Both the position numbers and the translations under genes were made by a program. From assembly GCA_022711755.1 (NCBI GenBank), contig JAKLEA010000010.1:128899-192898 (forward strand): 64,000 nt of DNA, written 5' to 3'. The notes beneath the pieces were generated by a model. The model searched no databases. It was not told where the DNA came from and saw only the letters and a list, made by a program, of their open reading frames with translations. Each line of letters opens with the position of its first letter. Positions within the stretch are counted from its first letter, which is position 1. Positions 19,211-54,135 of this stretch are shown piece after piece. This DNA comes from Planctomycetota bacterium (GTDB lineage: Bacteria > Planctomycetota > Brocadiia > SM23-32 > JAKLEA01).

Positions 19211-21367
19211 ATGTCAGGAATGTCCTGGAGGTTGCTGCCTGTGTGGGCGTCCATGACCGCCGTGCTTGTTTCCTGCGCTTCGGCGCCGGAAGAACGCCAG
19301 CGGACGTTCTACGTGTCGCTCAGCGGCAATGACGCATGGTCAGGAACGGTTGCGGAACCCAACGCGGGCGGGAGCGACGGTCCGCTTGCCACTCTGGAGC
19401 GGGCGCGGGAAACCCTGCGCGCGGCGCCGAAGGACATGCCGCGGCGCATTGTCGTCCGCGGGGGGGACTACCATGTTTCAAAATCGTTCGAGCTGGGGCC
19501 GGAGGATTCCGGAGAGGAGCAGTCCCCTGTCGTCTGGCAGGCGGCTCCGGGCGAGAAGGTCCGGCTCTGCGGCGGGCCGACCCTGACTGCGGACGCCTTC
19601 AGTCCGGCGACCGATCCGGCGACGCTGGGCAGGCTTGATCCGGGCGTTCGCGGGCATGTCATGCAGGCGAACCTGACGGAACTCGGCATCCCGATCCCGG
19701 AGGGATATCCCGATAAGTTTCACGGCGCTCCGCCCGGCGCGGAGCTTTTCTTCAACGGGAAGGCCATGACGCAGGCCAGGTGGCCGGACGATGGTTGGGC
19801 CACCGTGGCGCGGATAATCGAATCCGGCTCAAACCCGCGCGAGGGCGACACGGGGGGAAAGCCCGGCGTCTTTGAATACGCCGGGGACAGGCCGAATCGC
19901 TGGAATGTCGAGGAGGGGGTATGGCTTCTCGGCTACTGGTGTTTCGACTGGTATGAGGAGGCGATCAGGGTCAAGTCCATTGATCGGGAGAAGCGCCTGA
20001 TAACCTTCGTCGGACCGCATCTCTACAGTCTTAAGCAGGGCAATCCCTCTCCCCGACGATTCTGCGCGATAAACCTGCTCGAAGAGCTTGACCATCCGGG
20101 GGAGTATTATCTTGATCGAAAGAAGGGGATTCTCTATTTCCTTCCGCCGGCGGGGCTTGCCGGCGCGCGCGTGACGCTCTCGACGCTGGACTCCCCGGTC
20201 ATATTGCTGAAGGACGCCTCGAACGTCGCGATTCGCGGTTTTGCTGTTGAAGCCTGCAAGGGCAACGCGATTGAGATTCGCGGCGGCGCCGGGAACCGCA
20301 TCGAGGCCTGCGAGATCAGCAACACGCGCCAGTTGGCGGTCTACATTGACGGCGGAGCCGGCCACCGCGTGGATTCGTGCGACATACACGACACCGGGAC
20401 TGGCGGCATCAGGCTCGGCGGCGGAGATCGCAGGACGCTGACGCCGTCCGGGCATCTTGCGATCAACAACCACATATGGGACTTCTCCCGATTGCAGTTG
20501 ACCTATGCGTGCGCGATCTACCTCGACGGCGTCGGCAATCGCGCGGCGCACAACCTGCTCCACGACTCCCCCCACATGGCGGCAGCCATCGGCGGCAACG
20601 ATCACGTCTTTGAATATAACGTCATCCATCGCGTATGCACGGAGACGGACGACTGTGGCGCGATCTACAAGGGAAGGAATCCGTCATGCCGCGGCAACGT
20701 CATCCGGCACAACTTCTGGTATGACATTGGAAGACCGCTGGGGCACGGCAACGCGGCGATCTACTTCGACGACGGGGACGGCGGGGACCTTGTCTTCGGC
20801 AACGTCTTTTTCCGTTGCGGAGAGCCGGGCAGGGGATCGTTCGGGACCGTGTTCTCGCACGGGGGGCATGACATCCGGGCGGAGAACAACGTCTTTGTCG
20901 AGTGCAAGCGGGCGCTCGGTTCCGCCCCGTGGAATGATGAAGTGTGGAAGACCGCCGTCAACGGCGGGCTGGACTGCTTCTGGAACAAGAGGCTGCTGGA
21001 GGAGGTTGACATCACCAAGCCGCCCTACACGACCAGTTACCCGGAGATTGTCGGCTTCATGGACCCGCAGCCGGGGCAGGCGCGCATCAGCCGCGCGAAG
21101 CTGAACCTGATCGTCATGTGCGGGGAGGCGAGCGGCGGCAACTGGAGGTCCGAGCCCGGCGACAACTGGGAAACCAACGATGACCCGGGTTTTATTGACG
21201 CTGCAAAGGGGGATTTCCGCCTCAAGCCCGATTCCGAGGTTTTCAAACGGCTGCCGGGATTCCAGCCGATCCCGTTCGAGAAGATCGGGCTTTACGCCTG
21301 CGATCTGCGCCCGGCGCCCCCGGTTGAAGAGTGGAAGCTCGATCCGCCGAAGCCGATCAAGCCGTAA
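19211..21367 (+). CDS. right-handed parallel beta-helix repeat lipoprotein (pectate-lyase-fold, putative polysaccharide lyase/hydrolase)
   Basis: Lipobox LVSCAS follows a hydrophobic signal peptide. Multiple PbH1-type repeats are present (NVAIRGFAV, NRIEACEIS, HRVDSCDIHDTG, NHIWDF...). The ORF from 19094 has an unlikely N-terminal extension. Confidence 0.7.
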   Translation: MSGMSWRLLPVWASMTAVLVSCASAPEERQRTFYVSLSGNDAWSGTVAEPNAGGSDGPLATLERARETLRAAPKDMPRRIVVRGGDYHVSKSFELGPEDSGEEQSPVVWQAAPGEKVRLCGGPTLTADAFSPATDPATLGRLDPGVRGHVMQANLTELGIPIPEGYPDKFHGAPPGAELFFNGKAMTQARWPDDGWATVARIIESGSNPREGDTGGKPGVFEYAGDRPNRWNVEEGVWLLGYWCFDWYEEAIRVKSIDREKRLITFVGPHLYSLKQGNPSPRRFCAINLLEELDHPGEYYLDRKKGILYFLPPAGLAGARVTLSTLDSPVILLKDASNVAIRGFAVEACKGNAIEIRGGAGNRIEACEISNTRQLAVYIDGGAGHRVDSCDIHDTGTGGIRLGGGDRRTLTPSGHLAINNHIWDFSRLQLTYACAIYLDGVGNRAAHNLLHDSPHMAAAIGGNDHVFEYNVIHRVCTETDDCGAIYKGRNPSCRGNVIRHNFWYDIGRPLGHGNAAIYFDDGDGGDLVFGNVFFRCGEPGRGSFGTVFSHGGHDIRAENNVFVECKRALGSAPWNDEVWKTAVNGGLDCFWNKRLLEEVDITKPPYTTSYPEIVGFMDPQPGQARISRAKLNLIVMCGEASGGNWRSEPGDNWETNDDPGFIDAAKGDFRLKPDSEVFKRLPGFQPIPFEKIGLYACDLRPAPPVEEWKLDPPKPIKP

Positions 21368-36341: not shown

Positions 36342-36496
36342 CTGATCTCTCCGTTGGCGGCGTCCTGCGGCTCATTTGCCGGCCCCCAGCCGCCTCGGGG
36401 ACCGCTTTGAAGGACAAGGGATCATGCGGGAGCGGGTTTGAAACCCATCCCCGCACAATTCAGGTTAACATTGAAGGGAACCAAAGTAAAGAAACA

Positions 36497-36524
36497 GGGC
36501 CGCAGAGTCAAGTCCCTGCGGCCC
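36497..36524. terminator. bidirectional intrinsic terminator-like hairpin
   Basis: gggccgcag-N10-ctgcggccc with T-runs on both strands (tgtttctttactttgg on minus, attttcgccattttt on plus). It sits just downstream of the 36612 stop. Confidence 0.5.
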
Positions 36525-36611
36525 CGGATTTTCGCCATTTTTGCGGATCGCGTCGCCTTCCGCCCGCTCAGGCTCTTTCAGTCTGGAAGCCCTTGCGCGG
36601 GCTTGCCGGAC

Positions 36612-39850: not shown

Positions 39851-41130
39851 TTAAAGAGTCCACGGGCTGCGCCTGGCGCGATCCAGATACCTCGTCGCCT
39901 CCGGATCGTCAATGAACTGCTCCTTGTCCGGATTCCACTTGAGCTTGCGGTCCAGGAGCATGGAGATGTTGGCCAGGTGGGACAACGTGATTGACCTGTG
40001 CGCGATTTCCACCGGAGCGACTGTTTCCTTGCGGGACTTCACGCAGTCTATGAAGTTCTGGTAATGTCCTGGGCTTTTATAGAGGTGTACTTCGCCGGGC
40101 TTGATTTCCGACTGAAGGAGGGACTTCGGATGGGCGTCAATGAACCCGCGGTCCACGTGAACCCAGCCTTCCGTTCCCTCGAAGCGGACGCCGCCCTTGT
40201 TCTTGTTGCTGCAGATCAGCTTGACGCCGTTGGCGTAAAGGTATTCGGTATGGTGCTCGGTGGCTGTGTTGTAGAGGCCCTCCTTAGGGAACACGCCGTG
40301 GCCCTCGATCTCGATGGGGCCGGTATACATCGTTCCGTTGCCCCACTGGGCGATGTCGTTATGGTGCGCGCCCCAGTCGGTGATATTCCCGCCGGAGTAG
40401 TCGAGTATCCAGCGGAAGTTCCAGTGCGTCCGGTTCCTGGTGTAGGGGACCCATGGGGCCTGCCCCAGCCACATGTCCCAGTCGAAGCCCGGTGGCACTG
40501 GTTCCGGCGGCTGGACGCCTGTGCTGGGGGAGCCGCCGATGCCGGTCTTGATGGTGTGCAGCTTGCCGATGCGCTCGTTGCGGACCAGCTCGCAGCCGAA
40601 CCGGAATTCCGGGCCTGAGCGCTGTTGGCTGCCGGTCTGGAAGACCACGCCGTAACGCTTGATCGTGTCGGACATGACGCGCCCCTCGCGCACGGTCAGC
40701 GAGAGAGGCTTCTGGCAATACATGTCCTTGCCGGCCTTGGCGGCGGCAATGGCGATGATGGCGTGCCAGTGATCCGGCGTGGCGATCCCGACGGCGTCAA
40801 TGTCGTCGCGGGCGATAATCTCGCGGAAATCGTTGTAGCCCTTGCAGACGTTGCCGAGGTAGCGGAGGTTGACGGTCTTTACGGAGTCCTCGCGGCGGGA
40901 AGTGTCCACGTCGCAGCAGGCCACGACCTGGCATTCCGGGTTTCCCAGGAACGCGCCCATGTCGCCGTTGCCCATTCCGCCGCAACCGATCTGGCCCATT
41001 ACTATGCGGTTGCTCGCCGAGGGCGTTCCGTTTTTGCCCAGGGCGTTTGACGTGACGATGTAGGGCGCGAAGGCGGCCGAGGCCGCCGCCGTCAGGAACT
41101 GCCTTCGCGATACGTTGCCTTTTCGGTGCA
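39851..41130 (-). CDS. Tat-exported Gfo/Idh/MocA-like oxidoreductase (GH109-like family)
   Basis: Tat signal SRRQFLTAAASAAFA, Rossmann motif MGQIGCGGMGNGDM, and a conserved ATPDHWHA. It is a tandem paralog of 41221..42504. The start coordinate may be off by about 1 nt. Confidence 0.75.
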
Positions 41131-41220
41131 TTCTGAGCGTCTCCAGTGGTCGGGCATTTACGATGTGACGAAACGCGGGGGCGCGCAATGCGCCCTTGCG
41201 CAGAGCATTTTCTCTCGCTG

Positions 41221-42504
41221 CTATGTGAGAGTCCAGGGGCTTCGCATGGGGCGCCCGATCAGGCGGTCGGCCTCCGGATCGTTGACGAATCTCTCCCTGC
41301 CGGGGTCCCATCGCAGCTTGCGCCCGAGCAGCATCGCCATGTTGCCCAGGTGGCAGATCGTCGCGGAGCGATGGGCGACCTCCGCAGGCGCTACAGTTTC
41401 CTTCCTTGAGCGCGCACATTCAAGAAAGTTCAGGTGATGTCCGGGACTTTTATAGAGATGCAGTTCGCCCGGCCCTATCTCGCTGCGGATCAGCGATGGC
41501 GGGTCCGGGCGCAGAACTCCACGATCCACGTAGACGCTTCCCTCCGTCCCGATGAAGAGGACGCCGTTGGGATGATGGTCGTCGCAGATCAGCATGGTCC
41601 CGTCCGCGTATGTGTATTCCACGTGGAAGTGGACGGCAGTGTTGAACAGACCTTCTTTGGGAAAATCGCCGCGCCCCTCGATCTCGACCGGCCCGGTGAG
41701 TTCCGTCCCGTTGCCCCACTGAGCGATGTCGTTATGGTGCGCGCCGAAATCGGTCATGTTCCCGCCGGAGTAGTCGAAAATGTAGCGGAATGAGCCGTGG
41801 CAGCGGGAGGGTGTGTAAGGCGCGCACGGGGCCTGCCCGAGCCACATGTCGTAATCGAATCCCGGCGGAACGGGCTGCGGTTTCTGGATTCCAGTCCTCG
41901 GGCCGGGATAAAGGCCTGTCCTGATCGTATGCAGTTTTCCGATTCTCCCGTTGCGGACAAGCTCGCAGGCGAAGCGGAATTCCCACGAGGAGCGCTGCTG
42001 GCTCCCGCACTGGAAGACGCGGCGATAACGCTTCACGGCGTCGGACATCGCGCGCCCCTCCTCGATGGTCAGGGAGAGAGGCTTCTGGCAGAAGATGTCT
42101 TTTCCGGCCTTCGCGGCCATGATGGTCGGAATGGCATGCCAGTGGTCGGGCGTGGCGATACAGACGGCGTCAATGTCCTTGCGCGCCAGCAGTTCCCGGA
42201 AATCGCGATGGACGGCGCATCCCTTGTCGCGGTAGCGAAGGTTGGTCCTTTGCGCGGCGTCCCGCGCGCGGGCGGCGTCAACGTCGCAGACCGCGACCAC
42301 GCGGCAGTCGCCGTGGCCCAGGAAGATCATCATGTCGCCCATGCCCATGTTTCCCGTGCCGATGCAGCCCATCGTGATCCGCTCGCTTGCCGGGGGGACC
42401 CCGCCCTTGCCCAGCGCGGTCGAGGTTATGACATAAGGGGCGAAGGCTGCCGAGGCGGCCGCGCGGAGGAATGTTCTGCGGGTAAGGAGGGAATGGGGCG
42501 GCAT
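41221..42504 (-). CDS. Tat-exported Gfo/Idh/MocA-like oxidoreductase (GH109-like family)
   Basis: Tat signal TRRTFLRAAASAAFA, with MGCIGTGNMGMGDM and ATPDHWHA motifs. It is about 60 % identical by eye to the adjacent paralog. Confidence 0.75.
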   Translation of the reverse strand: MPPHSLLTRRTFLRAAASAAFAPYVITSTALGKGGVPPASERITMGCIGTGNMGMGDMMIFLGHGDCRVVAVCDVDAARARDAAQRTNLRYRDKGCAVHRDFRELLARKDIDAVCIATPDHWHAIPTIMAAKAGKDIFCQKPLSLTIEEGRAMSDAVKRYRRVFQCGSQQRSSWEFRFACELVRNGRIGKLHTIRTGLYPGPRTGIQKPQPVPPGFDYDMWLGQAPCAPYTPSRCHGSFRYIFDYSGGNMTDFGAHHNDIAQWGNGTELTGPVEIEGRGDFPKEGLFNTAVHFHVEYTYADGTMLICDDHHPNGVLFIGTEGSVYVDRGVLRPDPPSLIRSEIGPGELHLYKSPGHHLNFLECARSRKETVAPAEVAHRSATICHLGNMAMLLGRKLRWDPGRERFVNDPEADRLIGRPMRSPWTLT

Positions 42505-42551
42505 GTCGCGCAAGGTTGTCCGGCGGAACTCAAGGCGAGAATCGGGAACTT

Positions 42552-43508
42552 TCAATCCTTCCCGTTGTCGTCGCCCGGATTCGTTCTGTCCGCCGGTTTC
42601 CTGTCTTCCTGTTTGCTTGTATCCTTACTTTTTCTAATGGAAACGCGGTAGAAGACATATACCAGACAGAGAACGGTCAAAGCAACGGCGGCATAGAAAA
42701 AGTCCCGCCCGGACACGGAATAGACGTGCATACTCTTAGTGGAATCCGGCAATCCGCCAGCGCCGATGAAGGTGAAAATGACTGCGCAGAAGGCCGCAAT
42801 AAGAATGGCCGACAGGATTTCCGGGCGTTTCCTCAACTTCGGGAACGCCAGCGGCAGGTGCAGGTAGATCAGGTAAGCCAGCCAGGTGATGAGGCCGAGG
42901 GTCTCCTTTGGGTCCCAGCCCCAGTAGCGCCCCCACGCGCTCTTGGCCCAGAGCGCGCCGGACGTCAGGCCGATGGTCAGAAACGGGAACCCGAAGGCGC
43001 AGAGGCGATAACACAGCCTGTCAATCGCCAGCCCGCGGGATGTCTTCAGTTCCGGTCGGGCTATCTGGACTATGGCGGAGACGAACGCCGCGCCCATCGT
43101 GCCGTAACCGACGAAATAGGCGGTGACGTGGAGGGGGAACCAGTAGCTGCGCAGGGCGGCTGGAAGCTCCCGCACCTCTGATGAAGCCCTGAAGATTGCC
43201 AGCGCCGTCATCACCGCAGCCAGCGCGCTGCCCAGCGCCCCGAGCAACTGGACGCGGAACTGAAGCAGGACCATGAAGTTTGCGAGCGTCAACATAAATG
43301 TAAAAAAGAAGAGGGACTCGTATAGTCCGGAGGCGGGGAAGTGGCCGGCCTGTCGCCATCGCATTCCGATGAAGGCTACGTTGCAGGCCAGCGCCGCCGC
43401 GCACGCGAAAGTCGCAAAGCCGGACATGGCGTCCCTGCGTCTTATGACGCCTATGGTCCAGACAACTGCGGCCAGTGCGTAGAGGGCGAAGGTCAGTTCG
43501 GCAATCAT
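42552..43508 (-). CDS. ccsA: cytochrome c-type biogenesis protein CcsA (System II heme lyase subunit)
   Basis: WWD/Trp-rich heme-handling motif WGRYWGWDPKE and a polytopic membrane topology. Confidence 0.85.
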   Translation of the reverse strand: MIAELTFALYALAAVVWTIGVIRRRDAMSGFATFACAAALACNVAFIGMRWRQAGHFPASGLYESLFFFTFMLTLANFMVLLQFRVQLLGALGSALAAVMTALAIFRASSEVRELPAALRSYWFPLHVTAYFVGYGTMGAAFVSAIVQIARPELKTSRGLAIDRLCYRLCAFGFPFLTIGLTSGALWAKSAWGRYWGWDPKETLGLITWLAYLIYLHLPLAFPKLRKRPEILSAILIAAFCAVIFTFIGAGGLPDSTKSMHVYSVSGRDFFYAAVALTVLCLVYVFYRVSIRKSKDTSKQEDRKPADRTNPGDDNGKD

Positions 43509-43578
43509 TCCTGATGAGTTCTCCTGGCGGGTTCGCGTATGTGTTTAGCGCCAGTTTTTACTTCTTTTCGGAGAAACT

Positions 43579-43710
43579 TCCTTCCCCCGCGCGTAGCGTG
43601 GGGGAAGGTGTCGCCTCGCTCGTCGAGGCGACGGAAGGGGGCATTCACCTAGCCCCCATCCACCAGCCTTCGGCCGGTCCCCCTTCCCCCGCTACACGGC
43701 GCGGGGGAAG
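43579..43710. repeat. cluster of GC-rich palindromic (REP-like) hairpins
   Basis: cttcccccgcgcgtagcgtgggggaagg, gtcgcctcg/cgaggcgac, gggggc-N9-gccccc, and cttcccccgc-tacacg-gcgcgggggaag. The style is similar to the 25463-25620 cluster. Confidence 0.5.
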
Positions 43711-43802
43711 GTCGCGTATTGTCGCGCTTCGTTTCAACAAGGCGCGGGGCGCTAAACACATACGGGTTCGGAGAACCCACCCTACATTTGTAAGTCCTTA
43801 TT

Positions 43803-45575
43803 TCACAAGGGTTTGAGCGCCTTTCGCATCATCCAGCCGGTCACTCCGACGCTGAGGAGGATCATCCCCGCGTAGACCAGCGGAACACCCGGCTCGCTTA
43901 CGATCTGGAGCACGGCGTACTGCCCCGCCTCCTGATCGTAACCGGATTGCAGTATCTTGAATCCGCCGGCGCTGACCGGATTGTTGACGCTTACGGTCTC
44001 TTCGCGCGGGGGCTTGCCCGGCTCGCGGATCGTGATGTCGCTGTAAAACTGGACGGGCTTCATTCCCCCGCGAAACGCGACGTCCACGCCGGCTATCCGG
44101 CTGCCTTCCGGAGTCCAGGAGTCCACCCACGCGGATTCCTTCCGGCTCCCGATCTCCGCCTCCACCAGCAGCGCCGGCGAACGCAGAGACGGCAGCCCGG
44201 CGCGGCGAACCAGCATGTTCTTCATCAGCAGCGTCGGAATGTAACTGCGGTACAGGATGGACGCGCTCCTGCCGGGGAATTGTATGCTGTCCTTCTCATT
44301 CGGCTCGATTTTTTTCACCGCGCCCCCGTCTCTTCGGATGAAGATGACCGGCTTCTCCCCGCCCAAGTAGAACCAGAGCGCGTTTCGCGCGGGGGCGAAA
44401 TAGCTGATCCTGGCGTCCGGATACAGCCCCTGCTCGCCGCGGCCCATGCCGTGCCCGGAATCGAAATCCGGGTAGAAAGCGAAGACCCAGCGGGGCGAAT
44501 CCGCTCCGCCGGGGCCGATCAACTCCACTTGGGCGGCGGGATTGGCGAACTCGGCATTCGACGGATCGCGGAAATCGGGGCGCGAAGCAATGACGCGCAG
44601 GGAGAACGGCGTTCCCTCCAGCGGGACGGTCTCGCCCGGTTTCGCGTCGAACTCGTAGCCCTTGCCGCCGAGGGCGACGAGGTAGCGCTCCTCAAGGCAT
44701 TCCTTTTCAAGGGTCTCCGGAGGGACGCCGGGGACCTCGCGGGAGAAGAGCGCGATTTCGCCCTCCTGCCAGAAGAAACGCCCGGCTCTGGAATTGCGCG
44801 GGATGAGATACCAGTCCGTAGGGCGGGTGCTCCGCACCCGCGCGGGTTCTGTATTGGCCGCGCGTTCGGCGACTTCGAGAGTCAGCCCGACGGCGGGACC
44901 GTAATCAATTGCTCCAGGGTCGCCCGGCTCTGCGGGGGCCATGCGATACTCGGCGTCGGGCATATAGTCCAGCAGGCGGATTTCGCAACCGGCTTCGGGG
45001 ATTGCAACAGTCCCCCCGAGCGGAACCGTTATCTCCCGCGCGCCGGCGGCTGTCCGGACGGACAGGACCGGCGGCGACGGGTCAATGCGGAAATCGCGAA
45101 GGGCGATCTGGAAGGGAAGCTCCTCAACCCGGCGGTCCCAGGCGAAAACGCCGTCCGGACCCTTGCGGTAAAAATCCACTATCATGTGGTTCTGCGGGGC
45201 GTCCGGCCCGACGGCCATTGCGCCCTCGCGGCGGAACTTCAAGTCCATGACCACGCCGGCCAGGGTCAGAAGGATGCTGAAATGCGTAAGCAGGAACCAC
45301 CCCCCGGGCTTTCCGATGAAGCATCGCCTGACCGTGCATGCCGCAAGATTAACGCCAAACAACGCCAGCAGCGCAATGAACCAGCGGGAACGATAGACGT
45401 CCGTAAGCCCGGCGGCGTGAAGGGCGCGGCTGCCGACCGAGCCGTAAAGCTCAATGTAGGACTCGGCGGGCATGCGCTGAACGATGAGCGTGCCCAGCCC
45501 CGACGCCGCCGATATCAGGATCAGCGTCGCAATGGTCAGGCGTAGCGAAGCCAGTTTATCCAGAAGCGTTCTCAA
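43803..45575 (-). CDS. resB: cytochrome c biogenesis protein ResB/CcsB (System II)
   Basis: 590 aa with N-terminal TM helices and a ResB-like start (LASLRLTIATLILISAASGLGTL). It lies adjacent to ccsA. Confidence 0.75.
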   Translation of the reverse strand: MRTLLDKLASLRLTIATLILISAASGLGTLIVQRMPAESYIELYGSVGSRALHAAGLTDVYRSRWFIALLALFGVNLAACTVRRCFIGKPGGWFLLTHFSILLTLAGVVMDLKFRREGAMAVGPDAPQNHMIVDFYRKGPDGVFAWDRRVEELPFQIALRDFRIDPSPPVLSVRTAAGAREITVPLGGTVAIPEAGCEIRLLDYMPDAEYRMAPAEPGDPGAIDYGPAVGLTLEVAERAANTEPARVRSTRPTDWYLIPRNSRAGRFFWQEGEIALFSREVPGVPPETLEKECLEERYLVALGGKGYEFDAKPGETVPLEGTPFSLRVIASRPDFRDPSNAEFANPAAQVELIGPGGADSPRWVFAFYPDFDSGHGMGRGEQGLYPDARISYFAPARNALWFYLGGEKPVIFIRRDGGAVKKIEPNEKDSIQFPGRSASILYRSYIPTLLMKNMLVRRAGLPSLRSPALLVEAEIGSRKESAWVDSWTPEGSRIAGVDVAFRGGMKPVQFYSDITIREPGKPPREETVSVNNPVSAGGFKILQSGYDQEAGQYAVLQIVSEPGVPLVYAGMILLSVGVTGWMMRKALKPL

Positions 45576-45667: not shown

Positions 45668-48094
45668 CTATTTCGCCTCCCGCAGAGTGATTATCGCCTC
45701 AGTCATCCTCATGCGAACGTCCGCAAGGCTTGCTGAACTGATGTTCTTTCTTGAAATCGTCTTCCTTATCGCAAGAAGTTTGTCGTGGTCTTGGCGCATC
45801 CCATTCTTCTCAGCGGACGCCAGGGCGCGCTCCAACTGCCACATGTATTCGTAGTCCTCGACGCCCTGACGCCATGCCTCCCAGCGGCGGCTGGGGATGA
45901 TCGCCTCCCGGCGCGTCGCCTCCGGCGTAGCGGACCCGGAGTCGTACACAATCGCGTAATCGTGATGCGTCCCGTCGAAATCGTCCCATGCGGAACTCGG
46001 TGTCCAGCCCGTGTCGGCATAGGCCCAGAAGCCGCAGCCGCGATACCCCTGATCGAACGCGCGCCAGAACATCAGCCTGTAATACTCCAGCGGAGAAAGA
46101 TCCTTCCCCGGACCGGAGCAGAGATACGTCCAGACGATCTTGCCCGTGTCGAAGATCAGTTTGCGGTCCGCGGGACGGTCGTCGAATCCGTTCAGGTGCG
46201 GGCACCATACATCAATGAATGGCGCAATGGCCTTGATCTCTTCAGTGGTCGCGCCGCCGGTCGGGTCGGCCCAGATTCGCAGCTTCGGGTCAATCTCCTT
46301 CATGAGCCGGCAGAGATCGCGGAAGCCCGCCTCGAGCGTCTCATCGCACGGATACATGAAGAAGCAGTCGTAACCATAGCCGAGGGATTTCATGTGCGCG
46401 ACCCAGGCATTGAGCCACTCGGCGAAATTCGCCTTCCACGCTTCGCTCATCCACGGCCCGCCGAATCTGTCGCCGCCCGGCTTTTCACCGTCCCATCCCC
46501 AGAACCACGAAATCTGATCGAACGGCTCGTGCTTCTTCAGCATCTCGTCGTGGAACGTGAAGTCCATGTCCACGCCCTTCCCTCCCTCGCGCAGCTTGAA
46601 GGATGGAACGCAGGCCGGATGCAGGACGTACACGCGCTGGTAATGCGCCTTGAGGTCCGCGATGGCGGCCTCCTGATTGTTCCTGCACGCGCCCCAGCAG
46701 TTGACATAGGCCCAACTGTAGGTGTTGACGGCGGGTTTTTCGGGGAATTGAACGGGGGCGATCTTCAGAGTCATCGTTTGCGTGACAGGCTGGGCTACGC
46801 ATTCGCCCGATATGACAAGACTCATGTCATATGTGCCCGGCTCCATCCCATGAGTCCTGAGGATCACGAACGCCTGCCTTGTGGTTCCGGGCGGGATCAG
46901 CAGGCCATTCTCATGCGGCAGCGGGAGCGCGTCGAGCGGGCGATGTCCCCCCGCCGTGTCGGACGGAACCGCAGTCCGCAACTCAGCTTGTGAAACCAGC
47001 TTTTCGTTTCCCTCCAGCTTCAGGAACAGCTTCATCTCCCCGCCCGAAGTGTTTGACAGGTTGACGGCGAGAGGCTCGTATTCGCCGATCCAAGCATAAC
47101 TCGAAACGGCCTTTCCCCGTAGTTCCATGTCGGGCGGCGCATATTCGGAGATGTTGACCATCGGGTCGCCCGCCCAGCAGACAAGGCCTTCATGATTGCA
47201 TTCCTTCGCCCACATTCCTGCGCGCGCCCTGCCGATGCGCGACGCAAGCCGCTCAACCGCTTCCGCCGATCCGACCGCCTCGTAGATTTCCTTCTCAATA
47301 GCGTCAAGCTCGGGTTTCAATTCGTCCACCTGCGAAGGCCTGCGGACGGCTGTATCGCCGCGCGCATATGCCCGCAACGCCTCAAGTTCGACAGTCAGTC
47401 GCCCCAGTTTGCGCGTTCCGGTCATGAACTGATCCGCCGATGCGAAGGTCTTCGCATCATCAAACTTCACGTTTGCGGGATCGTGATCGCCCTTCATGAC
47501 CTCGATTTCATCGGTAAAGATGAAGTCTCCGCGCGCCTGCATCCCGACCTGGACGTAGCGCCCCCGCGTCGCGAGCTTCGGCGTCCGGAACTTGTGGACG
47601 TACCAATGCCCGTCCTTGTTCTCGTACTGTTTCAGTCCCGGTTCCGAGACGGCGGCAACCTTGCGGTAGGCCTTCCCGTCGTCGCTGACTATGGCGACGA
47701 TCATGATCGGGAAAAAGACGCCGGCATGCCCGCCCCCGGCCATGTTGACGGCGACGGAGTCAATCGGCTCGACGCGCCCGAGATCAATCGAGACGGTCGC
47801 CTGCCGTCCCTGCCAGCCGACTGTGCCCGGCCAGACCCAGAAATAGGCGGATGTGAATTTCCCGTCGGTTAACTGATTCGGGTCGCCGGGATCGGTGCAG
47901 TAACGATAATTCGGGCGCGGGATGAAATCGCACTTCTTTCCAAGAGCGAGATTCACGCCCGGCTCCGGAGCGCCCTGCCGGGGAAGTTTCTCTTCCGCGC
48001 TCGCATCCGAATGGATGAAATCAGGACAGGCAATTCCGGTTACGCATAGAAACGCCAGAACTCCGACAAATCCGGCTTCAGCGGCTTTTCTCAT
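45668..48094 (-). CDS. secreted discoidin-domain + DUF4091-like putative glycoside hydrolase
   Basis: Signal peptide, an N-terminal F5/8-type-C-like segment, and C-terminal DUF4091-like motifs WTYLCSGPG and QGVEDYEYMW. It is a paralog of 21425..23959. Confidence 0.5.
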   Translation of the reverse strand: MRKAAEAGFVGVLAFLCVTGIACPDFIHSDASAEEKLPRQGAPEPGVNLALGKKCDFIPRPNYRYCTDPGDPNQLTDGKFTSAYFWVWPGTVGWQGRQATVSIDLGRVEPIDSVAVNMAGGGHAGVFFPIMIVAIVSDDGKAYRKVAAVSEPGLKQYENKDGHWYVHKFRTPKLATRGRYVQVGMQARGDFIFTDEIEVMKGDHDPANVKFDDAKTFASADQFMTGTRKLGRLTVELEALRAYARGDTAVRRPSQVDELKPELDAIEKEIYEAVGSAEAVERLASRIGRARAGMWAKECNHEGLVCWAGDPMVNISEYAPPDMELRGKAVSSYAWIGEYEPLAVNLSNTSGGEMKLFLKLEGNEKLVSQAELRTAVPSDTAGGHRPLDALPLPHENGLLIPPGTTRQAFVILRTHGMEPGTYDMSLVISGECVAQPVTQTMTLKIAPVQFPEKPAVNTYSWAYVNCWGACRNNQEAAIADLKAHYQRVYVLHPACVPSFKLREGGKGVDMDFTFHDEMLKKHEPFDQISWFWGWDGEKPGGDRFGGPWMSEAWKANFAEWLNAWVAHMKSLGYGYDCFFMYPCDETLEAGFRDLCRLMKEIDPKLRIWADPTGGATTEEIKAIAPFIDVWCPHLNGFDDRPADRKLIFDTGKIVWTYLCSGPGKDLSPLEYYRLMFWRAFDQGYRGCGFWAYADTGWTPSSAWDDFDGTHHDYAIVYDSGSATPEATRREAIIPSRRWEAWRQGVEDYEYMWQLERALASAEKNGMRQDHDKLLAIRKTISRKNISSASLADVRMRMTEAIITLREAK

Positions 48095-48387: not shown

Positions 48388-49437
48388 CTACTCTTCCGGC
48401 TTGATCTCCTCGACGGGTTCTTCAGCCTTTTCGTCCTTCTTGTCCTTTTCGTTTTCAGCAGCCTTCTCCCCGTCCGGCTTCTCATCCTTCTTATCTTCTG
48501 CCTTGGCGGGCGGCTTCCCCTTGTCCCCGCCCTTGTCCGCCCCGGCCTCGCCTGAGCCGGTCCATTCCATCCGCTTGATCTTCGGCTCCGGCTCGGCCTT
48601 CTTGTCACCCCCCTTTTCAGACGGCTTCAGCGCCTCGCCCGGCTTCTCCCCCCCCTCTTTCTTCGCGGGTTCCTTCGCCGGTTCGGTCTTCTGCCCCGGT
48701 CCATGCTTCGGCTGGCGTCCCGCAAGTATCCGTTTCACATCGGACGGATCGTATCCCTGCTTTCTTAAATTCCAATATCGCGTGAAGCGCATCGGCTCCC
48801 CGCCGGTGGCGCGGTAGGACTCCATTATCTCCTTTGACTCGAATCCCTCCTTGCGAAGGTTCCAGTAATCCACAACCTTCTCGGAGTTCAAGCCGGCCAT
48901 CTGGAACGAGAACATTATCTCGCGATGATCGTATTCTTTGTGCAGCTCCAGGTATTTCTCGATCCTGTCCGGCTTCTCCCCCCAGAGCGCGAAAACCTCG
49001 TCCAGCTTCCGGTCCAGTTCCCCGAGCTTCCTGAGGTCGGGCTTCTCCTCCTTCAGAACTTCCTCGGCCTCGGCCATGACGGCGTCAACGTACATGGCGA
49101 CGGCTTCCTTTTCCCGCGCCGCGCGCCACGCCGGAATGATGAACTCCACGATCTGCGGCCGCTTCTGGCGGTCCAGGTCCTGCCGGTAGTCAATGAAAAG
49201 ATTTATCAGGTCGCGGTTGCCCTTGGACAGTTCCTTGACGGCGTCGTATTCCCGAACCGGCCACTGGTTCATCGCAAAAAGATTGCGGTACTCCTCGTCC
49301 TCGGAGTTTGTGATCCGGGTCTGGAGTTCGTTCTTGTATTTCTCGATGATCGCCCGCCTGTCCCCGGCAGAAGCCGTTTCGGAAGCGATAAGAATCATCG
49401 CCGCGCACAAGGCGCATATCGCCGCAATAGGTTTCAT
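48388..49437 (-). CDS. secreted hypothetical protein with a Lys/Glu-rich low-complexity C-terminal tail
   Basis: Signal peptide MKPIAAICALCAAMILIASETASA. The C-terminal ~130 aa are dominated by K, E, P, G and A (KKEGGEKPGEALKPSEKGGDKK...). Confidence 0.55.
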   Translation of the reverse strand: MKPIAAICALCAAMILIASETASAGDRRAIIEKYKNELQTRITNSEDEEYRNLFAMNQWPVREYDAVKELSKGNRDLINLFIDYRQDLDRQKRPQIVEFIIPAWRAAREKEAVAMYVDAVMAEAEEVLKEEKPDLRKLGELDRKLDEVFALWGEKPDRIEKYLELHKEYDHREIMFSFQMAGLNSEKVVDYWNLRKEGFESKEIMESYRATGGEPMRFTRYWNLRKQGYDPSDVKRILAGRQPKHGPGQKTEPAKEPAKKEGGEKPGEALKPSEKGGDKKAEPEPKIKRMEWTGSGEAGADKGGDKGKPPAKAEDKKDEKPDGEKAAENEKDKKDEKAEEPVEEIKPEE

Positions 49438-49552
49438 GTGAATGTCCTCCGCCGCGCCCGACAGCACGGGGTGTTTTTTACTGATGTCATTATAGAACAA
49501 CGCATGGCAGAACCGCAATGCCGGCTCAGATTGCGGCATCATCCCGCGCGGC

Positions 49553-50191
49553 TCACTCCGCCGGGCCTGAAACCAGCCTCTCCTCCCGCGGCGCGCCCCC
49601 TTCCGGCAACTCCCCCGACACAAGTTCCGCCCCCATTCGCCGCGCCGCCTCCATCGCCGCCCCGTGCTTCAGAATGTCGCCCTTCGCGTCAACCCTGTTG
49701 ACGTATAGGCTGAGGGCGTGGCGCATCTCCAGCGCGTCGAAGAAATACTTCATCGTCAGCGTCACGGAATCGAACATGAGCCTGCTTTTCGAACCGCCAA
49801 CCGCGATGACCATGCCCCGGCGATCCCGCGCCCCGTCAGGAAAGAGCGGCTGTTTGAGCACGTATCTGCGCGCCCACAGACACTGACAACGGTCAATCAT
49901 CAGCTTGCCCTGCGCGCAGACGCCCATGAAGAATACGGGCGTGGCGAAAATAAGTCTGTCGCTCTCGATCAGTTTGCCGAAGATTTCCTGATAGTCGTCG
50001 TCCAGCCTGCACTTGCCCAGCCCGTAGCAGGCGTTGCATTCCAGGCACGGGCCGATGCTCATGCCCGGCAGCCAGATATATTCCGTCTCCGCCCCGGCGC
50101 TCGCGGCCCCTTCCAGCGCCAGCTTCAGCAGCGTGTCGCTGTTGCCGTCCCTGCGCGGGCCTGACGAAATGCCCAGGACTTTCTTGTTCAT
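49553..50191 (-). CDS. NADPH-dependent FMN reductase-like flavoprotein (iron-sulfur flavoprotein family)
   Basis: KVLGISSGPRRDGNS flavodoxin-like N-terminus, and a CxxCxxC-like cluster (CLECNACYGLGKC). Confidence 0.7.
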   Translation of the reverse strand: MNKKVLGISSGPRRDGNSDTLLKLALEGAASAGAETEYIWLPGMSIGPCLECNACYGLGKCRLDDDYQEIFGKLIESDRLIFATPVFFMGVCAQGKLMIDRCQCLWARRYVLKQPLFPDGARDRRGMVIAVGGSKSRLMFDSVTLTMKYFFDALEMRHALSLYVNRVDAKGDILKHGAAMEAARRMGAELVSGELPEGGAPREERLVSGPAE

Positions 50192-50277: not shown

Positions 50278-52653
50278 ATGAACATCCGCCGCATGGCCAT
50301 TGCCGTATGCCGCGACGCGGGCTATGCTGTAAGTTCAAAGGAAACCCGATCCGTGACCCCAACAGGCAATAACCAATCGCGCCGGGAACTTATGGCCTCC
50401 GTCCGCGACCACTGCGCGGGCCGGCGGACGGGCTGGCTGCAAATCCTGCGCGAAATCGGCGAATACTACGCCGAGGGATTCTACCGCGCCGAATTCGCCG
50501 GCAAGCCCCTCCCGATGCGTTTCGCCGAGGCCATATCCAATACCTACCGCAACATGCCTGTCGAGGTTCCGGAGAAAGGACTCCTTATCCCGCGCCAACC
50601 ATTCGGCAACCCGGACGGCGAACCCTGGCGCGGGGGGGGCATGATTCTCCACTGGCAGCACTCCGCCGGCCCCGTCCTAGCCCCCCGCGAGGTTGTCGCC
50701 GCGCGGAAAACGCTCTTCCCGGAATATGCCGAGTTCATTGACATGTGGCTTGAGGAATGGTCCCGGCGCCGCTACGCATTCGGCGGCTACACGCACAGCA
50801 ATCCGGATTATCCGACCGTTCTCGCAAAGGGCCTCCTCGGAATGAGGGCCGAACTCCTCGAACGCAGCGCCGCAGCGCGCCGCGACGAGCCGGACAATCG
50901 CCCAAAGCTGGACCTCTATGACGCCCTCATCGTCTACGTCGAGGGCGTCGAGGCATGGCATCGGCGTCAGGTCGCCGCCGTTGAGAGAGCCGCCTCTTCC
51001 TGCGCAAATCCCGCCCGAAAGTCTGAGTTGGAACGGTTGATCCCGGAACTGCGACGCTCCCTGCTCCATCCCGCAGAATCCTTTTATCAGGCCGTCCTGA
51101 CCGCGCACTGGGTCTGGCTCCTCGATCCGGCGGATAACTACGGCCATCTCGATCAGTATCTCGAATCCTTCTGGCGCGCGGACATGGAATCCGGCAGAAC
51201 CGACCGGCGCATGACCGAGGGGCTGCTGGACGAGGTTTTCGACAACATGAACCGCGTCGGCGGGTGGAACGTCGCCATCGGCGGGACGCGTCCGGACGGC
51301 TCCGTCGCCGACAATCCGCTGACGATTGAGTGCATCCGTTCCGTCTGCCGCGTGAGGCAGTTGCGCCCCAATCTCGCGCTGCGGGTAAGTTCAAAAACCG
51401 ACGACAGCCTGCTCGTCGAAGCGTTGAAATGCGTCCGCCTCGGGACCGGCAGACCGGCGCTCTACAACGACGATCTCTACATCAAATCGTTGATGGACTC
51501 CGGCCTCGGCCTGGCCATCGAAGACGCGCGGGATTACGCCTTCGGCGGCTGCACGGAGACCATGATCCCCGGCAGGAGCAACTGCGGCTCGCTGGACGGG
51601 GAGCTGAACCTTGCCCAGTGCCTCGAAAGGGCGCTCTGGAACGGACGGGGGCTTGCCGACGGCAGCGGCGGCGTCAACTGCTGGAGGCAGGCCGGCGGCG
51701 GGCCGACAACTGGCTTTCTCTACGACCATGCAAGCTTCGACGACCTGCTTGCCGCCTTCCGCCGCCAGGTGGATTTCGCCACCGATCAGGTTGTCGCATG
51801 GCTCTGGAACGAACACTCCCAGCGTCCTCACAGCGGCGATCCGAAGCTTGCGCGCACCTTCTTCACAAGCGACTGTGTCCGCAGCGGGCTGGGCTTCGAG
51901 GCCGGCGGCGCGCGCTACAACTGGAGCGTCATCACCTATCACGGCATCGCCAATGCCGCTGACAGCCTGATCGCCGTCAGGGAACTCGTCTATGAGAAGA
52001 AGGAGATTTCCGCGCGGCAATTGTTGGACGCGCTGAAGGCCGATTTCGAGGGGCATGAAGACCTGCGGTGGCGCATTCAGAAAGTCCGGCGCTTCGGCAA
52101 CGACGACCCCGTCGCCGACGACGTGGCGCGGGACGTTGCGGAATACGCCTGGAAGCGATTGCGCGAGCATGTTCCCTTCCGCGGCGGGCGCTATCTGCCC
52201 AGCGTCATCCTCTTCGCCACCTACGACGCCGCCGGGCGCAACGTCGGCGCGCTGCCGGACGGGCGCAAAAGCGCCGCGCCGCTGGTGGACTCCGTCGGCC
52301 CATTCGCAGGGCGGGACGTCAACGGCCCCACCGCCATGCTCAACTCCGTCGCCCGGCTTCCGCTCCATCTCGCCGTGGGGACGCCGATACTCAATATGCG
52401 CCTTGCCCCGAAAATCATGGAATCGGATGACGACCTTCGCAAGATCGCCGCCATGATCCGCGCTTTCTTCATCCAGGGCGGAATGCAGATTCAGTTCACC
52501 GTCGTTGACCCCGGCATGCTCCGCCGTGCGCAGGCGAAGCCCGAGGAATTCCGCGACCTCGTCATCCGCATCGGCGGCTACAGCGAATATTTCGTCCGCC
52601 TGAGCCGGGAGCTTCAGGACTCCGTCATCGCCCGCACGGAACACGGCTCCTGA
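50278..52653 (+). CDS. glycyl radical enzyme, PFL2/glycerol-dehydratase-like family. The start is uncertain, and the Met at 50392 is possible.
   Basis: C-terminal glycyl radical motif RIGGYSEYFVRLSRELQDSVIARTEHGS, and a mid-protein Cys loop FGGCTETMIPG. The length of about 790 aa fits the family. Confidence 0.75.
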   Translation: MNIRRMAIAVCRDAGYAVSSKETRSVTPTGNNQSRRELMASVRDHCAGRRTGWLQILREIGEYYAEGFYRAEFAGKPLPMRFAEAISNTYRNMPVEVPEKGLLIPRQPFGNPDGEPWRGGGMILHWQHSAGPVLAPREVVAARKTLFPEYAEFIDMWLEEWSRRRYAFGGYTHSNPDYPTVLAKGLLGMRAELLERSAAARRDEPDNRPKLDLYDALIVYVEGVEAWHRRQVAAVERAASSCANPARKSELERLIPELRRSLLHPAESFYQAVLTAHWVWLLDPADNYGHLDQYLESFWRADMESGRTDRRMTEGLLDEVFDNMNRVGGWNVAIGGTRPDGSVADNPLTIECIRSVCRVRQLRPNLALRVSSKTDDSLLVEALKCVRLGTGRPALYNDDLYIKSLMDSGLGLAIEDARDYAFGGCTETMIPGRSNCGSLDGELNLAQCLERALWNGRGLADGSGGVNCWRQAGGGPTTGFLYDHASFDDLLAAFRRQVDFATDQVVAWLWNEHSQRPHSGDPKLARTFFTSDCVRSGLGFEAGGARYNWSVITYHGIANAADSLIAVRELVYEKKEISARQLLDALKADFEGHEDLRWRIQKVRRFGNDDPVADDVARDVAEYAWKRLREHVPFRGGRYLPSVILFATYDAAGRNVGALPDGRKSAAPLVDSVGPFAGRDVNGPTAMLNSVARLPLHLAVGTPILNMRLAPKIMESDDDLRKIAAMIRAFFIQGGMQIQFTVVDPGMLRRAQAKPEEFRDLVIRIGGYSEYFVRLSRELQDSVIARTEHGS

Positions 52654-52761: not shown

Positions 52762-54135
52762 ATGCCGCTGAAATTCGATGTCGTCGCGGAGGAAATCATC
52801 GGGACGTTCGAGAACCCGGACAACGGCTCCGGGCCGATGTGGTGCTACGGCTCTCCCACCATCGTCCGGAACAACGACCGCGTCTTCGCCGCGATTCCGG
52901 AAACGGACAAGGACGCGAAGCCCCTTTGCAACACGCGACGCCGCATCTTTTGCCGGGGCGCGGACGGCAAGTGGGAGCTTGTCTACCGCGCGGATAAGAC
53001 GGACGAGCGCGAGCCGTGCCCTCTCGTGACGCTGCCCGGCGGACGCCTCATCATGTCCGTCAACCCCGCCGTAAGCCCCCGCCCGGCATGGGGGGACGGC
53101 AGAATCCCCCACAACTGCCGGCCGCACCTGCTCGAGTTCAGCGTCCTGGACCCGAAGCAGCCCCCGTCGCAATCCATGCCCGTCTGGGCGAAGGAATACG
53201 AGTTCACGGAGCATTCCTACCGCGGCGTCGCCGCCGATCATCACACCGGCGAAATCCTCCTCCTGAACGTCATCGGCTATGACGGGCAGACCTGGACGAT
53301 GCGCGACTCGGCGGGCCAGTGGGTCAAGCAGGGCTACGTCGGCTTCCCGCTGCGCGGCGCGTATCCGCACCTGGCCCTGCGCAAGGGCGCGGCCTTCATG
53401 ATGGCCGTCAGCGACGTCGTCGAGCCTAACGTCGAGTGGCGCGCGCACAAGCGCAAGGTCACGGGCCAGGAGTGGGATTACGACTTCCGACAGCTCTACT
53501 TCACCTGGACCCCGGACATCCGCGAGCATGAGTTCTCCCCCCCCCTGACCGTCGCCAGCCGGGACGAGACCTGCGGATCAATCCGCAACATGGACATGTG
53601 GATCGCCCCCGACGGCGCGGCGCACCTGGTCTACATTGACCGCAACGTCTGGCACAAGTTCATCCGCGACGAGTTCTTCCCCGGCGTGCCGATCTCCGCC
53701 GAGTTGAAATACTGCGTGATCGAAAAGGGCAAGGTCATACTCCGCCGCACCATTGCGCGAAGCATCGAGGGCATGTTCGACGAAGGCAAGCCCCGCCCGA
53801 CGCCGACGGACATCCCGGACTCGAAGGTCCCCCTGCTTGGCTTCGGCCCCGGTTATGCCGCCCTGCATGCCACCGCCGACGACCGGCTCATCCTCCTCTG
53901 CCACGCCGGATGTAGCGACCCGAAGCAACCCGGCGCCGGCGGCGTCTACGCGATGCAACTGCATCCCGCCGCTGAAGACGCGCCGGTCAAGCTCGACATG
54001 AAGTTCCCTCTCGGCTCCTTCTTCACGGCGACCGTCCGGAACGGTACGATGCCCTCGGACACGATTGACCTCTACGGCCACGGCCCGGAACCGAACACGA
54101 TCCGCTACGCGCAGATCAAGGTGACGCAGCAATAG
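52762..54135 (+). CDS. hypothetical protein (457 aa), no recognisable family
   Basis: A long ORF preceded by GGAGGAAACGCCGATG. No signal peptide or known motif recognised. Confidence 0.5.
   Translation: MPLKFDVVAEEIIGTFENPDNGSGPMWCYGSPTIVRNNDRVFAAIPETDKDAKPLCNTRRRIFCRGADGKWELVYRADKTDEREPCPLVTLPGGRLIMSVNPAVSPRPAWGDGRIPHNCRPHLLEFSVLDPKQPPSQSMPVWAKEYEFTEHSYRGVAADHHTGEILLLNVIGYDGQTWTMRDSAGQWVKQGYVGFPLRGAYPHLALRKGAAFMMAVSDVVEPNVEWRAHKRKVTGQEWDYDFRQLYFTWTPDIREHEFSPPLTVASRDETCGSIRNMDMWIAPDGAAHLVYIDRNVWHKFIRDEFFPGVPISAELKYCVIEKGKVILRRTIARSIEGMFDEGKPRPTPTDIPDSKVPLLGFGPGYAALHATADDRLILLCHAGCSDPKQPGAGGVYAMQLHPAAEDAPVKLDMKFPLGSFFTATVRNGTMPSDTIDLYGHGPEPNTIRYAQIKVTQQ

Follow-up and report, generated by a model that had tools for sequence, protein, structure and literature searches.

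A conserved Gfo/Idh/MocA–heptaheme cytochrome operon, predicted to be respiratory, near System II maturation genes in a Planctomycetota genome

Introduction

Exported oxidoreductases of the Gfo/Idh/MocA family start oxidative glycan breakdown and are among the most expanded protein families in Planctomycetota, Verrucomicrobiota and Bacteroidota. How such an enzyme might have its bound cofactor re-oxidised outside the cytoplasm is the question raised by a 64-kb stretch of a metagenomic Planctomycetota genome (contig JAKLEA010000010.1, positions 128,899 to 192,898; hereafter, the window). In this window, the System II cytochrome c maturation genes resB and ccsA (the ccs genes) adjoin a tandem pair of Gfo/Idh/MocA genes, Gfo1 and Gfo2, whose products are predicted to be exported by the twin-arginine translocation (Tat) pathway. 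A first-pass annotation of this DNA took the adjacency as support for the idea that periplasmic NAD-type oxidoreductases hand electrons to c-type cytochromes. It had missed four genes farther along the same strand, 6–14 kb downstream, which encode another Tat-exported Gfo/Idh/MocA protein (GfoC), a heptaheme cytochrome c (Cyt7), a cytochrome b (CytB) and an ApbE-family protein (Table 1). We consider it probable that the conserved GfoC–Cyt7–CytB operon is the functional unit of this locus, that the ccs genes nearby are ordinary System II genes, and that Gfo1 and Gfo2 are partnered with HEAT, ThuA and DUF1080 proteins.

Liu et al. (2021, PMC8121099) reported that the DUF1080 protein BT2157 hydrolyses 3-keto-trehalose and proposed that the Tat-exported BT2158 makes the 3-keto sugar with bound NAD(P), the oxidant being left as “another as yet unidentified sugar”. 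The GfoC–Cyt7–CytB operon provides a concrete alternative for cofactor recycling, namely re-oxidation linked to respiration.

The GfoC–Cyt7–CytB operon is conserved

Nine homologues of Cyt7 (39–50% identity), a small sample chosen for long contigs, were looked up in their genomic contexts. A GfoC-orthologous Tat-Gfo gene was located directly upstream of the Cyt7 homologue in seven of the nine contexts, and a Ni_hydr_CYTB gene recognised by Pfam directly downstream in five, to which a weaker CytB-like open reading frame (ORF) in context P0130 can be added. Orthologues of three further module proteins recurred in most of these contexts: a protein with an F5/8-type-C domain (F5/8C protein) in 7/9, a membrane enzyme resembling the protein O-mannosyltransferase family (PMT-like) in 6/9, and ApbE in 6/9. 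GfoC orthologues were 53–63% identical in an alignment of five Cyt7-homologue loci and 49–61% identical by tblastn. The order C2-type Gfo genes (the type of Gfo1 and Gfo2), HEAT protein, GfoC, Cyt7 was common to three genomes, those of the window and of loci L164 and L171, the last of which was arrived at by a separate path that started from a 62%-identical Gfo1 homologue.

Within the window, the successive gaps from GfoC through the second DUF1080 gene (DUF1080b) are 6, 0, −4, −4, −4 and −4 bp, the start of CytB abutting the stop of Cyt7 and ApbE overlapping DUF1080b by 4 bp. Spacing of this kind is characteristic of an operon with translational coupling. The gene content of the module, its tight packing and its conservation are plain from these comparisons. 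Genes encoding DUF1080, ThuA, AP_endonuc_2 (xylose-isomerase-like) and MFS (major facilitator superfamily) sugar transporter proteins were frequent neighbours of Cyt7 homologues. The probable substrate is a hydroxyl group of a sugar or glycoside; DUF1080, ThuA and AP_endonuc_2 are proteins of the 3-keto-glycoside route. Futalosine-pathway menaquinone genes (VitK2_biosynth and radical SAM/CofH_C) directly follow the module ApbE in L168 (16422–18340), and a uroporphyrinogen decarboxylase gene (heme synthesis) lies 9 kb upstream in L173 (1–1114).

The Cyt7 family is large, with at least 2050 homologues at E ≤ 1e-5. The top 120 share 39–52% identity with Cyt7 and are about 540–830 amino acids (aa) long, most of them 600–700 aa; the few homologues that carry a source name are from Planctomycetota and are mostly called “hypothetical protein”. 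Full-text searches, which did not cover all journals, returned no relevant paper on Gfo/Idh/MocA proteins with multiheme cytochromes, on Gfo/Idh/MocA proteins with ApbE, or on Tat export together with cytochrome c, and the main text of a survey of ApbE-dependent extracytosolic flavinylation (PMC8238504) has no Gfo or PMT-type partners. Considering that no relevant literature was found and that the named Cyt7 members are mostly hypothetical proteins, we regard the module as apparently an undescribed variant of the known periplasm-facing, quinone-reducing dehydrogenase complexes.

Properties of the module proteins

GfoC shares only 26% identity with Gfo1 and belongs to a different subfamily. Conserved among its orthologues are the GxGxxG motif, the acidic residue that follows β2 (VCDIW), the EK motif (YCEKEMS) and the twin-arginine motif. 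The first three of these features lead us to expect a nicotinamide cofactor in GfoC.

Cyt7 is the only protein with CXXCH motifs in the window. All seven motifs and eight further His residues were invariant in 66 homologues, a number sufficient to give each heme bis-His ligation; this pattern fits an electron wire better than a catalytic or substrate-binding heme. A confident AlphaFold2 (AF2) model built on the homologue alignment (pLDDT, the predicted local distance difference test, 83.9; pTM, the predicted template modelling score, 0.84) contained a signal-like helix of the Sec type at residues 9–22 and a long C-terminal transmembrane helix at 573–607, which would anchor the protein in the membrane. 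No match to this model was found in the PDB by Foldseek at E ≤ 0.001, and a sequence search of the PDB returned nothing useful.

CytB scored 119.1 bits with the formate dehydrogenase gamma model TIGR01583 (cutoff, 115.85) and 65.5 bits with PF01292 (cutoff, 30.1). It has His residues in its predicted helices. With GfoC next to Cyt7 in most contexts and CytB following it, the part of the first-pass proposal that has periplasmic NAD-type oxidoreductases hand electrons to c-type cytochromes now attaches to GfoC, for which the predicted cytochrome link is well supported; for Gfo1 and Gfo2, which the proposal had been about, the case is circumstantial.

The F5/8C protein is 54–61% identical between genomes. 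Near its N-terminus, within the Pro-rich segment LPKPVFxGTPKN, is an invariant FxGTP motif, and the Thr of this motif could serve for glycosylation or for flavinylation of an unconventional kind. The gene for this protein is always accompanied by that for the PMT-like enzyme (in the window, L164, L165, L167 and L168). The only match to the flavinylation motif [ST]GA[ST] was a single SGAT at residue 351 of the distant ThuA-HEAT protein (Table 1), which is compatible with chance.

The placement of resB and ccsA is peculiar to this genome

ResB scored 119.5 bits with PF05140, against a cutoff of 24.6, which places it in the family. CcsA matched PF01578 and contains the tryptophan-rich WWD heme-handling motif (WGRYWGWDPKE, with the core WGWDPKE). 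The names that the first-pass annotation had given to both genes are thereby confirmed. CcsA scored 166.9 bits with the NCBIfam equivalog TIGR03144 (CcsB), under the cutoff of 187.6, and is therefore divergent; its nearest relatives among genomes sampled at one per species (35–37% identity) belong to other phyla, mostly Desulfobacterota. ResB appears to be highly divergent, judging from a word-indexed search of 5.8 billion proteins in which only the query itself was returned at E ≤ 1e-10.

These genes lie on the minus strand in the transcription order resB, ccsA, Gfo1, Gfo2. The Gfo pair, which had been described as directly upstream of ccsA and resB, is thus on the same strand as stated but downstream of both. 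An overlap of 4 bp, which the earlier description had placed at the ccsA start, does exist, but it is formed by the ccsA stop and the start of the longest Gfo1 reading frame, a TTG codon at 42555. When Gfo1 is started at the ATG codon at 42504, its RR motif lies 9–10 residues in, as in Gfo2, Gfo3 (a third C2-type paralog) and their orthologues, and a spacer of 47 bp separates it from ccsA. One public gene call for Gfo1 uses the TTG start and one the ATG start. resB (end at 43803) and ccsA (start at 43508) are adjacent and co-directional, and the 294-bp gap between them yielded no convincing candidate when scanned for a small ORF.

Conservation of the adjacency was assessed in three sets of loci. 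The first consisted of 80 ccsA loci, one genome per species, with flanks of ±10 kb; the second, of 80 Gfo1-family loci from a metagenome scan (42–57% identity, 0.70 Mb in total); and the third, of 10 related loci, namely eight Cyt7-homologue contexts and the two closest Gfo1-homologue contexts, searched by tblastn at E ≤ 1e-3. Neither a Gfo homologue nor a Cyt7 homologue was found within the flanks of any of the 80 ccsA genes, no ResB, CcsA or Cyt7 homologue was found at any of the 80 Gfo1-family loci, and neither ResB nor CcsA was detected in the 10 related loci. Both of the closest Gfo1 homologues from long contigs (61–62% identity) lack ccs genes in their neighbourhood, and the ninth Cyt7 context, available as a list of families only, included no ResB or CcsA family. 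These data indicate that the position of resB and ccsA directly upstream of Gfo1 and Gfo2 is peculiar to this genome, a single observation in a window where Gfo genes are abundant (four in 64 kb). Lacking conservation, the ccs–Gfo adjacency is weak evidence for electron transfer; taken alone it carries little weight, and the support that the first-pass annotation had drawn from it falls away now that synteny has been compared.

An ORF with at least four hemes was present within 10 kb in 25 of the 80 ccsA loci (31%), as against one of the 80 Gfo1-family loci, indicating that System II genes are commonly located near multiheme clients. In the window, the ccs genes are co-directional with Cyt7 at a distance of 8.7 kb. 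They are most simply explained as ordinary System II genes near a heme-hungry client operon, with which they are perhaps co-regulated; this is also the most economical explanation. A terminator-like hairpin was found at 36526–36495, between the HEAT gene that follows Gfo2 and the next gene. It matches the consensus only, and the count of such sites in this region is not above that in shuffled sequences. Its position suggests two transcription units, resB–ccsA–Gfo1–Gfo2–HEAT and DUF1080–GfoC–Cyt7–CytB–F5/8C–PMT–ApbE–DUF1080.

As housekeeping genes, resB and ccsA would serve all c-type cytochromes of the cell, and their Gfo neighbour, and even the proximity of the heptaheme operon, could be without functional meaning. 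The abundance of Gfo genes speaks for such a chance arrangement, with four of them in one 64-kb window and at least 8000 members of the Gfo1 family at E ≤ 1e-30, and so do the failure of the adjacency to recur in any of the three sets, the hairpin between the ccs–Gfo unit and the cytochrome operon, and the four ccsA loci from PVC (Planctomycetes–Verrucomicrobia–Chlamydiae) genomes in the sample, none of which has a cytochrome gene nearby. It is less readily reconciled with the shared orientation of the ccs genes and the only cytochrome c gene of the window, with the frequency of client proximity in the ccsA sample, or with the 47-bp ccsA–Gfo1 spacer, which contains no hairpin and suggests co-transcription. 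Since no other module genome has this ccs placement and a probable terminator intervenes, we keep chance as an unlikely, though by no means negligible, explanation.

Gfo1 and Gfo2 resemble glycoside 3-dehydrogenases

Gfo1 and Gfo2 are 66% identical to each other, and Gfo3 is 47–49% identical to both. All three combine a Rossmann NAD(P)-binding domain (PF01408) with a C-terminal α/β domain of the PF19051 type, whereas in GfoC the corresponding domain matches PF02894/PF22725. Twin-arginine motifs, each followed by a hydrophobic stretch, were found in Gfo1 (TRRTFL), Gfo2 (SRRQFL), Gfo3 (TRRRLL) and GfoC (SRRDFV), and all four proteins are predicted to be Tat-exported. The tandem paralogs and the third paralog noticed in the first-pass annotation are therefore real members of the family. 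The label “GH109-like” attached to them was less apt. The top PDB matches of Gfo1 were the dehydrogenases 8tdf (E 2e-24) and 8tdh (E 5e-24), and the best NCBIfam model for Gfo1 and Gfo2 was NF058561, the BT_2158-type glycoside 3-dehydrogenase (136.6 and 157.5 bits). PDB entry 2ixa, the founding GH109 enzyme, was not among the Gfo1 matches at E ≤ 1e-5; it matched GfoC only (E 1.9e-9), well behind many dehydrogenases. As the NF058561 scores are far under the cutoff of 750 bits and cover only positions 1–265 of 487, orthology to BT2158 is not established.

The Gfo1 family is spread, at 55–60% identity, across PVC phyla, Hydrogenedentes and Nitrospiraceae. In 18 of the 80 loci, a HEAT/ThuA/DUF1080-type gene began within 1.5 kb on the downstream side of the Gfo1-family gene; among the 46 loci whose downstream sequence was long enough, 12 had such a partner. 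HEAT partners were also found in L164, L171 and L172. The pairing occurs twice in the window: Gfo1 and Gfo2 are followed by a probable HEAT-repeat lipoprotein, with two C-terminal β-sandwich repeats that are weakly DUF1080-like (PF06439, E 0.006), and Gfo3 is paired with the ThuA-HEAT protein, the stop of which overlaps the Gfo3 start by 4 bp. Two candidate connections were rejected in the course of this comparison. Gfo-HEAT fusions, the Rosetta-stone idea, were discarded because the overlaps came from crude ORF clustering and were not in-frame, and cytochrome c domains on the HEAT/ThuA partners were discarded after CXXCH was found in only one of 36 partner ORFs. Near a Gfo1-HEAT-DUF1080 set in L111, a membrane-anchored NapC/NirT-like tetraheme ORF (18595–19329, plus strand) runs into FGE-sulfatase-like sequence; this unusual fusion is cut by the contig end and is unrelated to Cyt7.

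Two views of how Gfo1 and Gfo2 dispose of their electrons have to be weighed. They may pass electrons to c-type cytochromes themselves, the ccs genes being placed where they are for that reason. The short spacers make it probable that ccsA, Gfo1, Gfo2 and HEAT are co-transcribed, and C2-type Gfo genes with HEAT stand directly upstream of GfoC–Cyt7 in the window, L164 and L171; both points speak for this view. Yet Cyt7 homologues, ResB and CcsA are all missing from the 80 Gfo1-family loci, the only ORF with four or more hemes among them is the NapC/NirT-like protein of another kind, the recurrent neighbours are HEAT/ThuA/DUF1080 proteins nearly always devoid of CXXCH (35 of the 36 partner ORFs), and the closest Gfo1 homologue, P0005, has a HEAT partner only. 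We consider a direct hand-off by Gfo1 and Gfo2 distinctly improbable.

Alternatively, Gfo1 and Gfo2 may be redox-neutral enzymes with tightly bound NAD(P), either ping-pong 3-dehydrogenases of the BT2158/GFOR kind or glycosidases of the GH109/GH4 type, which would work with DUF1080, ThuA and HEAT partners and need no external acceptor, leaving the cytochrome module to GfoC alone. Their best family and structure matches (NF058561, 8tdf and 8tdh) are glycoside 3-dehydrogenases, their conserved neighbours carry 3-keto-glycoside domains (DUF1080 and ThuA, with AP_endonuc_2 in L171), and the same bound-cofactor mechanism has been proposed for the Tat-exported BT2158 (Liu et al. 2021, PMC8121099). 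The partial NF058561 match (137–158 bits against 750, in the N-terminal 265 positions) and the absence of 2ixa from the Gfo1 matches tell against it, and it leaves the co-location with the cytochrome module in three genomes unexplained. The chances of this view seem to us about even. As a whole, Gfo1 and Gfo2 are best described as glycoside-3-dehydrogenase-like enzymes by their sequences; their link to the cytochrome is indirect and circumstantial, resting on the co-location in a supercluster in three genomes, and a redox-neutral mechanism with bound cofactor is at least as likely for them as a cytochrome link.

Layout of the window

The genes described above belong, Gfo3 and the ThuA-HEAT gene apart, to a run of 14 minus-strand genes that extends over about 20 kb, from 45575 down to 25736. 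After Gfo2, this run goes on for about 14 kb more through HEAT, DUF1080, GfoC, Cyt7, CytB, F5/8C, PMT, ApbE, DUF1080b and ThuA-DUF1080 (Table 1).

Table 1. Features of the window, with positions counted from its first nucleotide
Feature	Position	Strand	Supporting match or property
resB/ccsB, System II cytochrome c biogenesis, 590 aa	43803..45575	-	PF05140 ResB, 119.5 bits
ccsA, System II heme exporter/lyase subunit, 318 aa	42552..43508	-	PF01578, 124.1 bits
Gfo1, C2-type Gfo/Idh/MocA with Tat signal, 427 aa	41221..42504 (longest ORF to 42555)	-	PF01408 + PF19051
Gfo2, tandem paralog of Gfo1, 426 aa	39851..41131 (ORF to 41419)	-	PF01408 + PF19051
HEAT-repeat probable lipoprotein, 1057 aa	36612..39785	-	PF13646 HEAT_2, E 2e-33
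Terminator-like hairpin, interval between HEAT gene and next gene	36495..36526	-	13-bp stem, 10 G-C pairs, T-rich tail
DUF1080 / 3-keto-disaccharide hydrolase family, 332 aa	35343..36341	-	PF06439, 103.4 bits
GfoC, Tat Gfo/Idh/MocA with classic C-terminal domain, 473 aa	33863..35284	-	PF01408 + PF02894 + PF22725
Cyt7, heptaheme cytochrome c, 619 aa	31997..33856	-	7 CXXCH motifs
CytB, FdnI-like dihaem cytochrome b membrane subunit, 231 aa	31301..31996	-	TIGR01583, 119.1 bits; PF01292, 65.5 bits
F5/8-type-C (discoidin/CBM32-like) small secreted protein, 235 aa	30597..31304	-	weak PF00754/PF22633 matches
PMT/ArnT-like GT-C membrane glycosyltransferase, 524 aa	29026..30600	-	PF02366 and PF13231
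ApbE-family FAD:protein FMN transferase, 326 aa	28049..29029	-	PF02424, 168.1 bits
DUF1080b / 3-keto-disaccharide hydrolase, secreted, 242 aa	27324..28052	-	PF06439, 162.9 bits
ThuA + DUF1080 fusion, 508 aa	25736..27262	-	PF06283, 151.5 bits; PF06439, 163.9 bits
Gfo3, third C2-type Tat-Gfo paralog, 447 aa	55518..56861	-	PF01408 + PF19051
ThuA-HEAT protein, 1129 aa	56858..60247	-	PF06283 + PF13646

Immediately upstream of resB, and in the same orientation, are two large ORFs. The nearer one (45668–48094, minus strand; 808 aa) has only a weak F5/8-type-C match and a homologue in one of the 80 Gfo1-family loci; the other (48388–49623, minus strand; 411 aa) has no Pfam match. Farther on, a glycyl-radical enzyme gene (PFL-like + Gly_radical; 50278–52653, plus strand) is followed by an ORF of 457 aa without a Pfam match (52762–54135, plus strand) and is preceded by a divergent FMN reductase-like gene (49553–50191, minus strand). 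No radical-SAM activase was recognised among the ORFs scanned. Elsewhere in the window, dnaA was identified at 13464–14948 (minus strand) by the domains Bac_DnaA, DnaA_N and DnaA_C, so that the replication origin may be close by; the G+C content falls to 0.56–0.58 at 10–16 kb. Scanned against Rfam for regulatory RNAs, the window gave zero matches.

Proposed electron route

The features of the conserved operon can be assembled into a route. GfoC would be exported folded, with its nicotinamide cofactor, through the Tat pathway, and would oxidise a sugar or glycoside hydroxyl in the periplasm. It would then dock on the membrane-anchored Cyt7, along whose bis-His heme chain electrons would reach the FdnI-like cytochrome b and, through it, menaquinone. 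The conversion of a hydride to single electrons is the chemically awkward step, and a covalent flavin supplied by ApbE may turn the two-electron hydride into one-electron steps, although no module protein carries the canonical flavinylation motif. Gfo1 and Gfo2 may use the same cytochrome outlet. We put forward tentatively, as a possibility short of the probable, that Planctomycetota possess a respiratory module in which a Tat-exported Gfo/Idh/MocA enzyme feeds a heptaheme wire of unmatched fold, a cytochrome b and menaquinone, perhaps with an ApbE flavin as converter, so that periplasmic glycan oxidation by the 3-keto-glycoside route would conserve energy and pairs of C2-type Gfo and HEAT proteins could share the outlet.

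Several points weigh against this route or against parts of it. Sequence does not show which way electrons flow, and the direction is inferred from established redox potentials: oxidation of a sugar alcohol to menaquinone is downhill, and transfer from quinol to NAD+ is uphill. To our knowledge, there is no precedent for a nicotinamide-cofactor Gfo/Idh/MocA enzyme that donates to heme. The module ApbE has neither a signal peptide nor a lipobox, and the same is true of its orthologues in L164, L165 and L167; a cytoplasmic ApbE that acts on a Tat substrate before export is conceivable. The flavinylation motif, searched for as [ST]GA[ST] or [ST]G[AS][ST], was absent from the 14 proteins of the cluster and from the module proteins of L164, L165, L167, L168 and L169. 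Two of the nine Cyt7 homologues have no Gfo neighbour, which means that the cytochrome can work in other contexts. As for the ccs genes, the probable terminator stands between their unit (resB–ccsA–Gfo1–Gfo2–HEAT) and the cytochrome operon, and their placement may be accidental, considering that ResB and CcsA are missing from 10/10 other loci; the view of these genes is that of the 64-kb window, and the genome may contain further System II copies.

If the route is correct, the module would explain the periplasmic re-oxidation of bound NAD(P)H, and GfoC would represent a new type of primary dehydrogenase in bacterial respiratory chains. Polysaccharide degradation would be tied to energy conservation in anaerobic and micro-oxic planctomycetes, and a large multiheme family (at least 2050 members) without a solved structural relative would be introduced.

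Comparison with known systems

The surroundings of the ccs genes recall the System II loci of many Desulfobacterota and Campylobacterota, where resB–ccsA lie within 10 kb of a multiheme gene (25/80 ccsA loci). Unlike in those loci, non-cytochrome genes and a probable terminator intervene here, and the arrangement does not occur in the other module genomes.

With BT2156–BT2159 and GFOR, the proteins of the window share the Tat signal, the Gfo/Idh/MocA fold and the DUF1080 partners, and when Gfo1 and Gfo2 are compared with NCBIfam and the PDB, their best matches fall in this group. Those systems have, however, been proposed to be redox-neutral and have no cytochrome partner (PMC8121099), whereas the GfoC subfamily is operonic with cytochromes c and b; the partners in the window also differ from those of BT2156–BT2159 in being large HEAT-repeat proteins.

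Periplasmic glycoside oxidation that is tied to a c-type cytochrome and followed by processing of the 3-keto-glycoside is a feature that the module would have in common with glucoside 3-dehydrogenase/LacABC, of the FAD/GMC type; LacABC and ThuAB have been termed “cytochrome c-dependent dehydrogenases” (Liu et al. 2021, PMC8121099). GfoC differs from LacABC in that it is a Rossmann-fold Gfo/Idh/MocA protein without a flavin domain, and the cytochrome here is a 619-aa heptaheme protein without a sequence or fold match in the PDB.

In its overall design, the module is similar to formate dehydrogenase-N (FdnGHI). Both have a Tat-exported catalytic subunit, which here would be GfoC, an electron-transfer subunit with one C-terminal transmembrane helix as its anchor, as modelled for Cyt7, and a dihaem cytochrome b of the FdnI family. 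The catalytic subunit of FdnGHI is a molybdoenzyme, whereas GfoC is a Gfo/Idh/MocA protein of the nicotinamide type, and the place of the FdnGHI 4x[4Fe-4S] protein would be taken by a heptaheme cytochrome c wire. To this common plan, the module adds the conserved F5/8C protein, the PMT-like transferase and ApbE.

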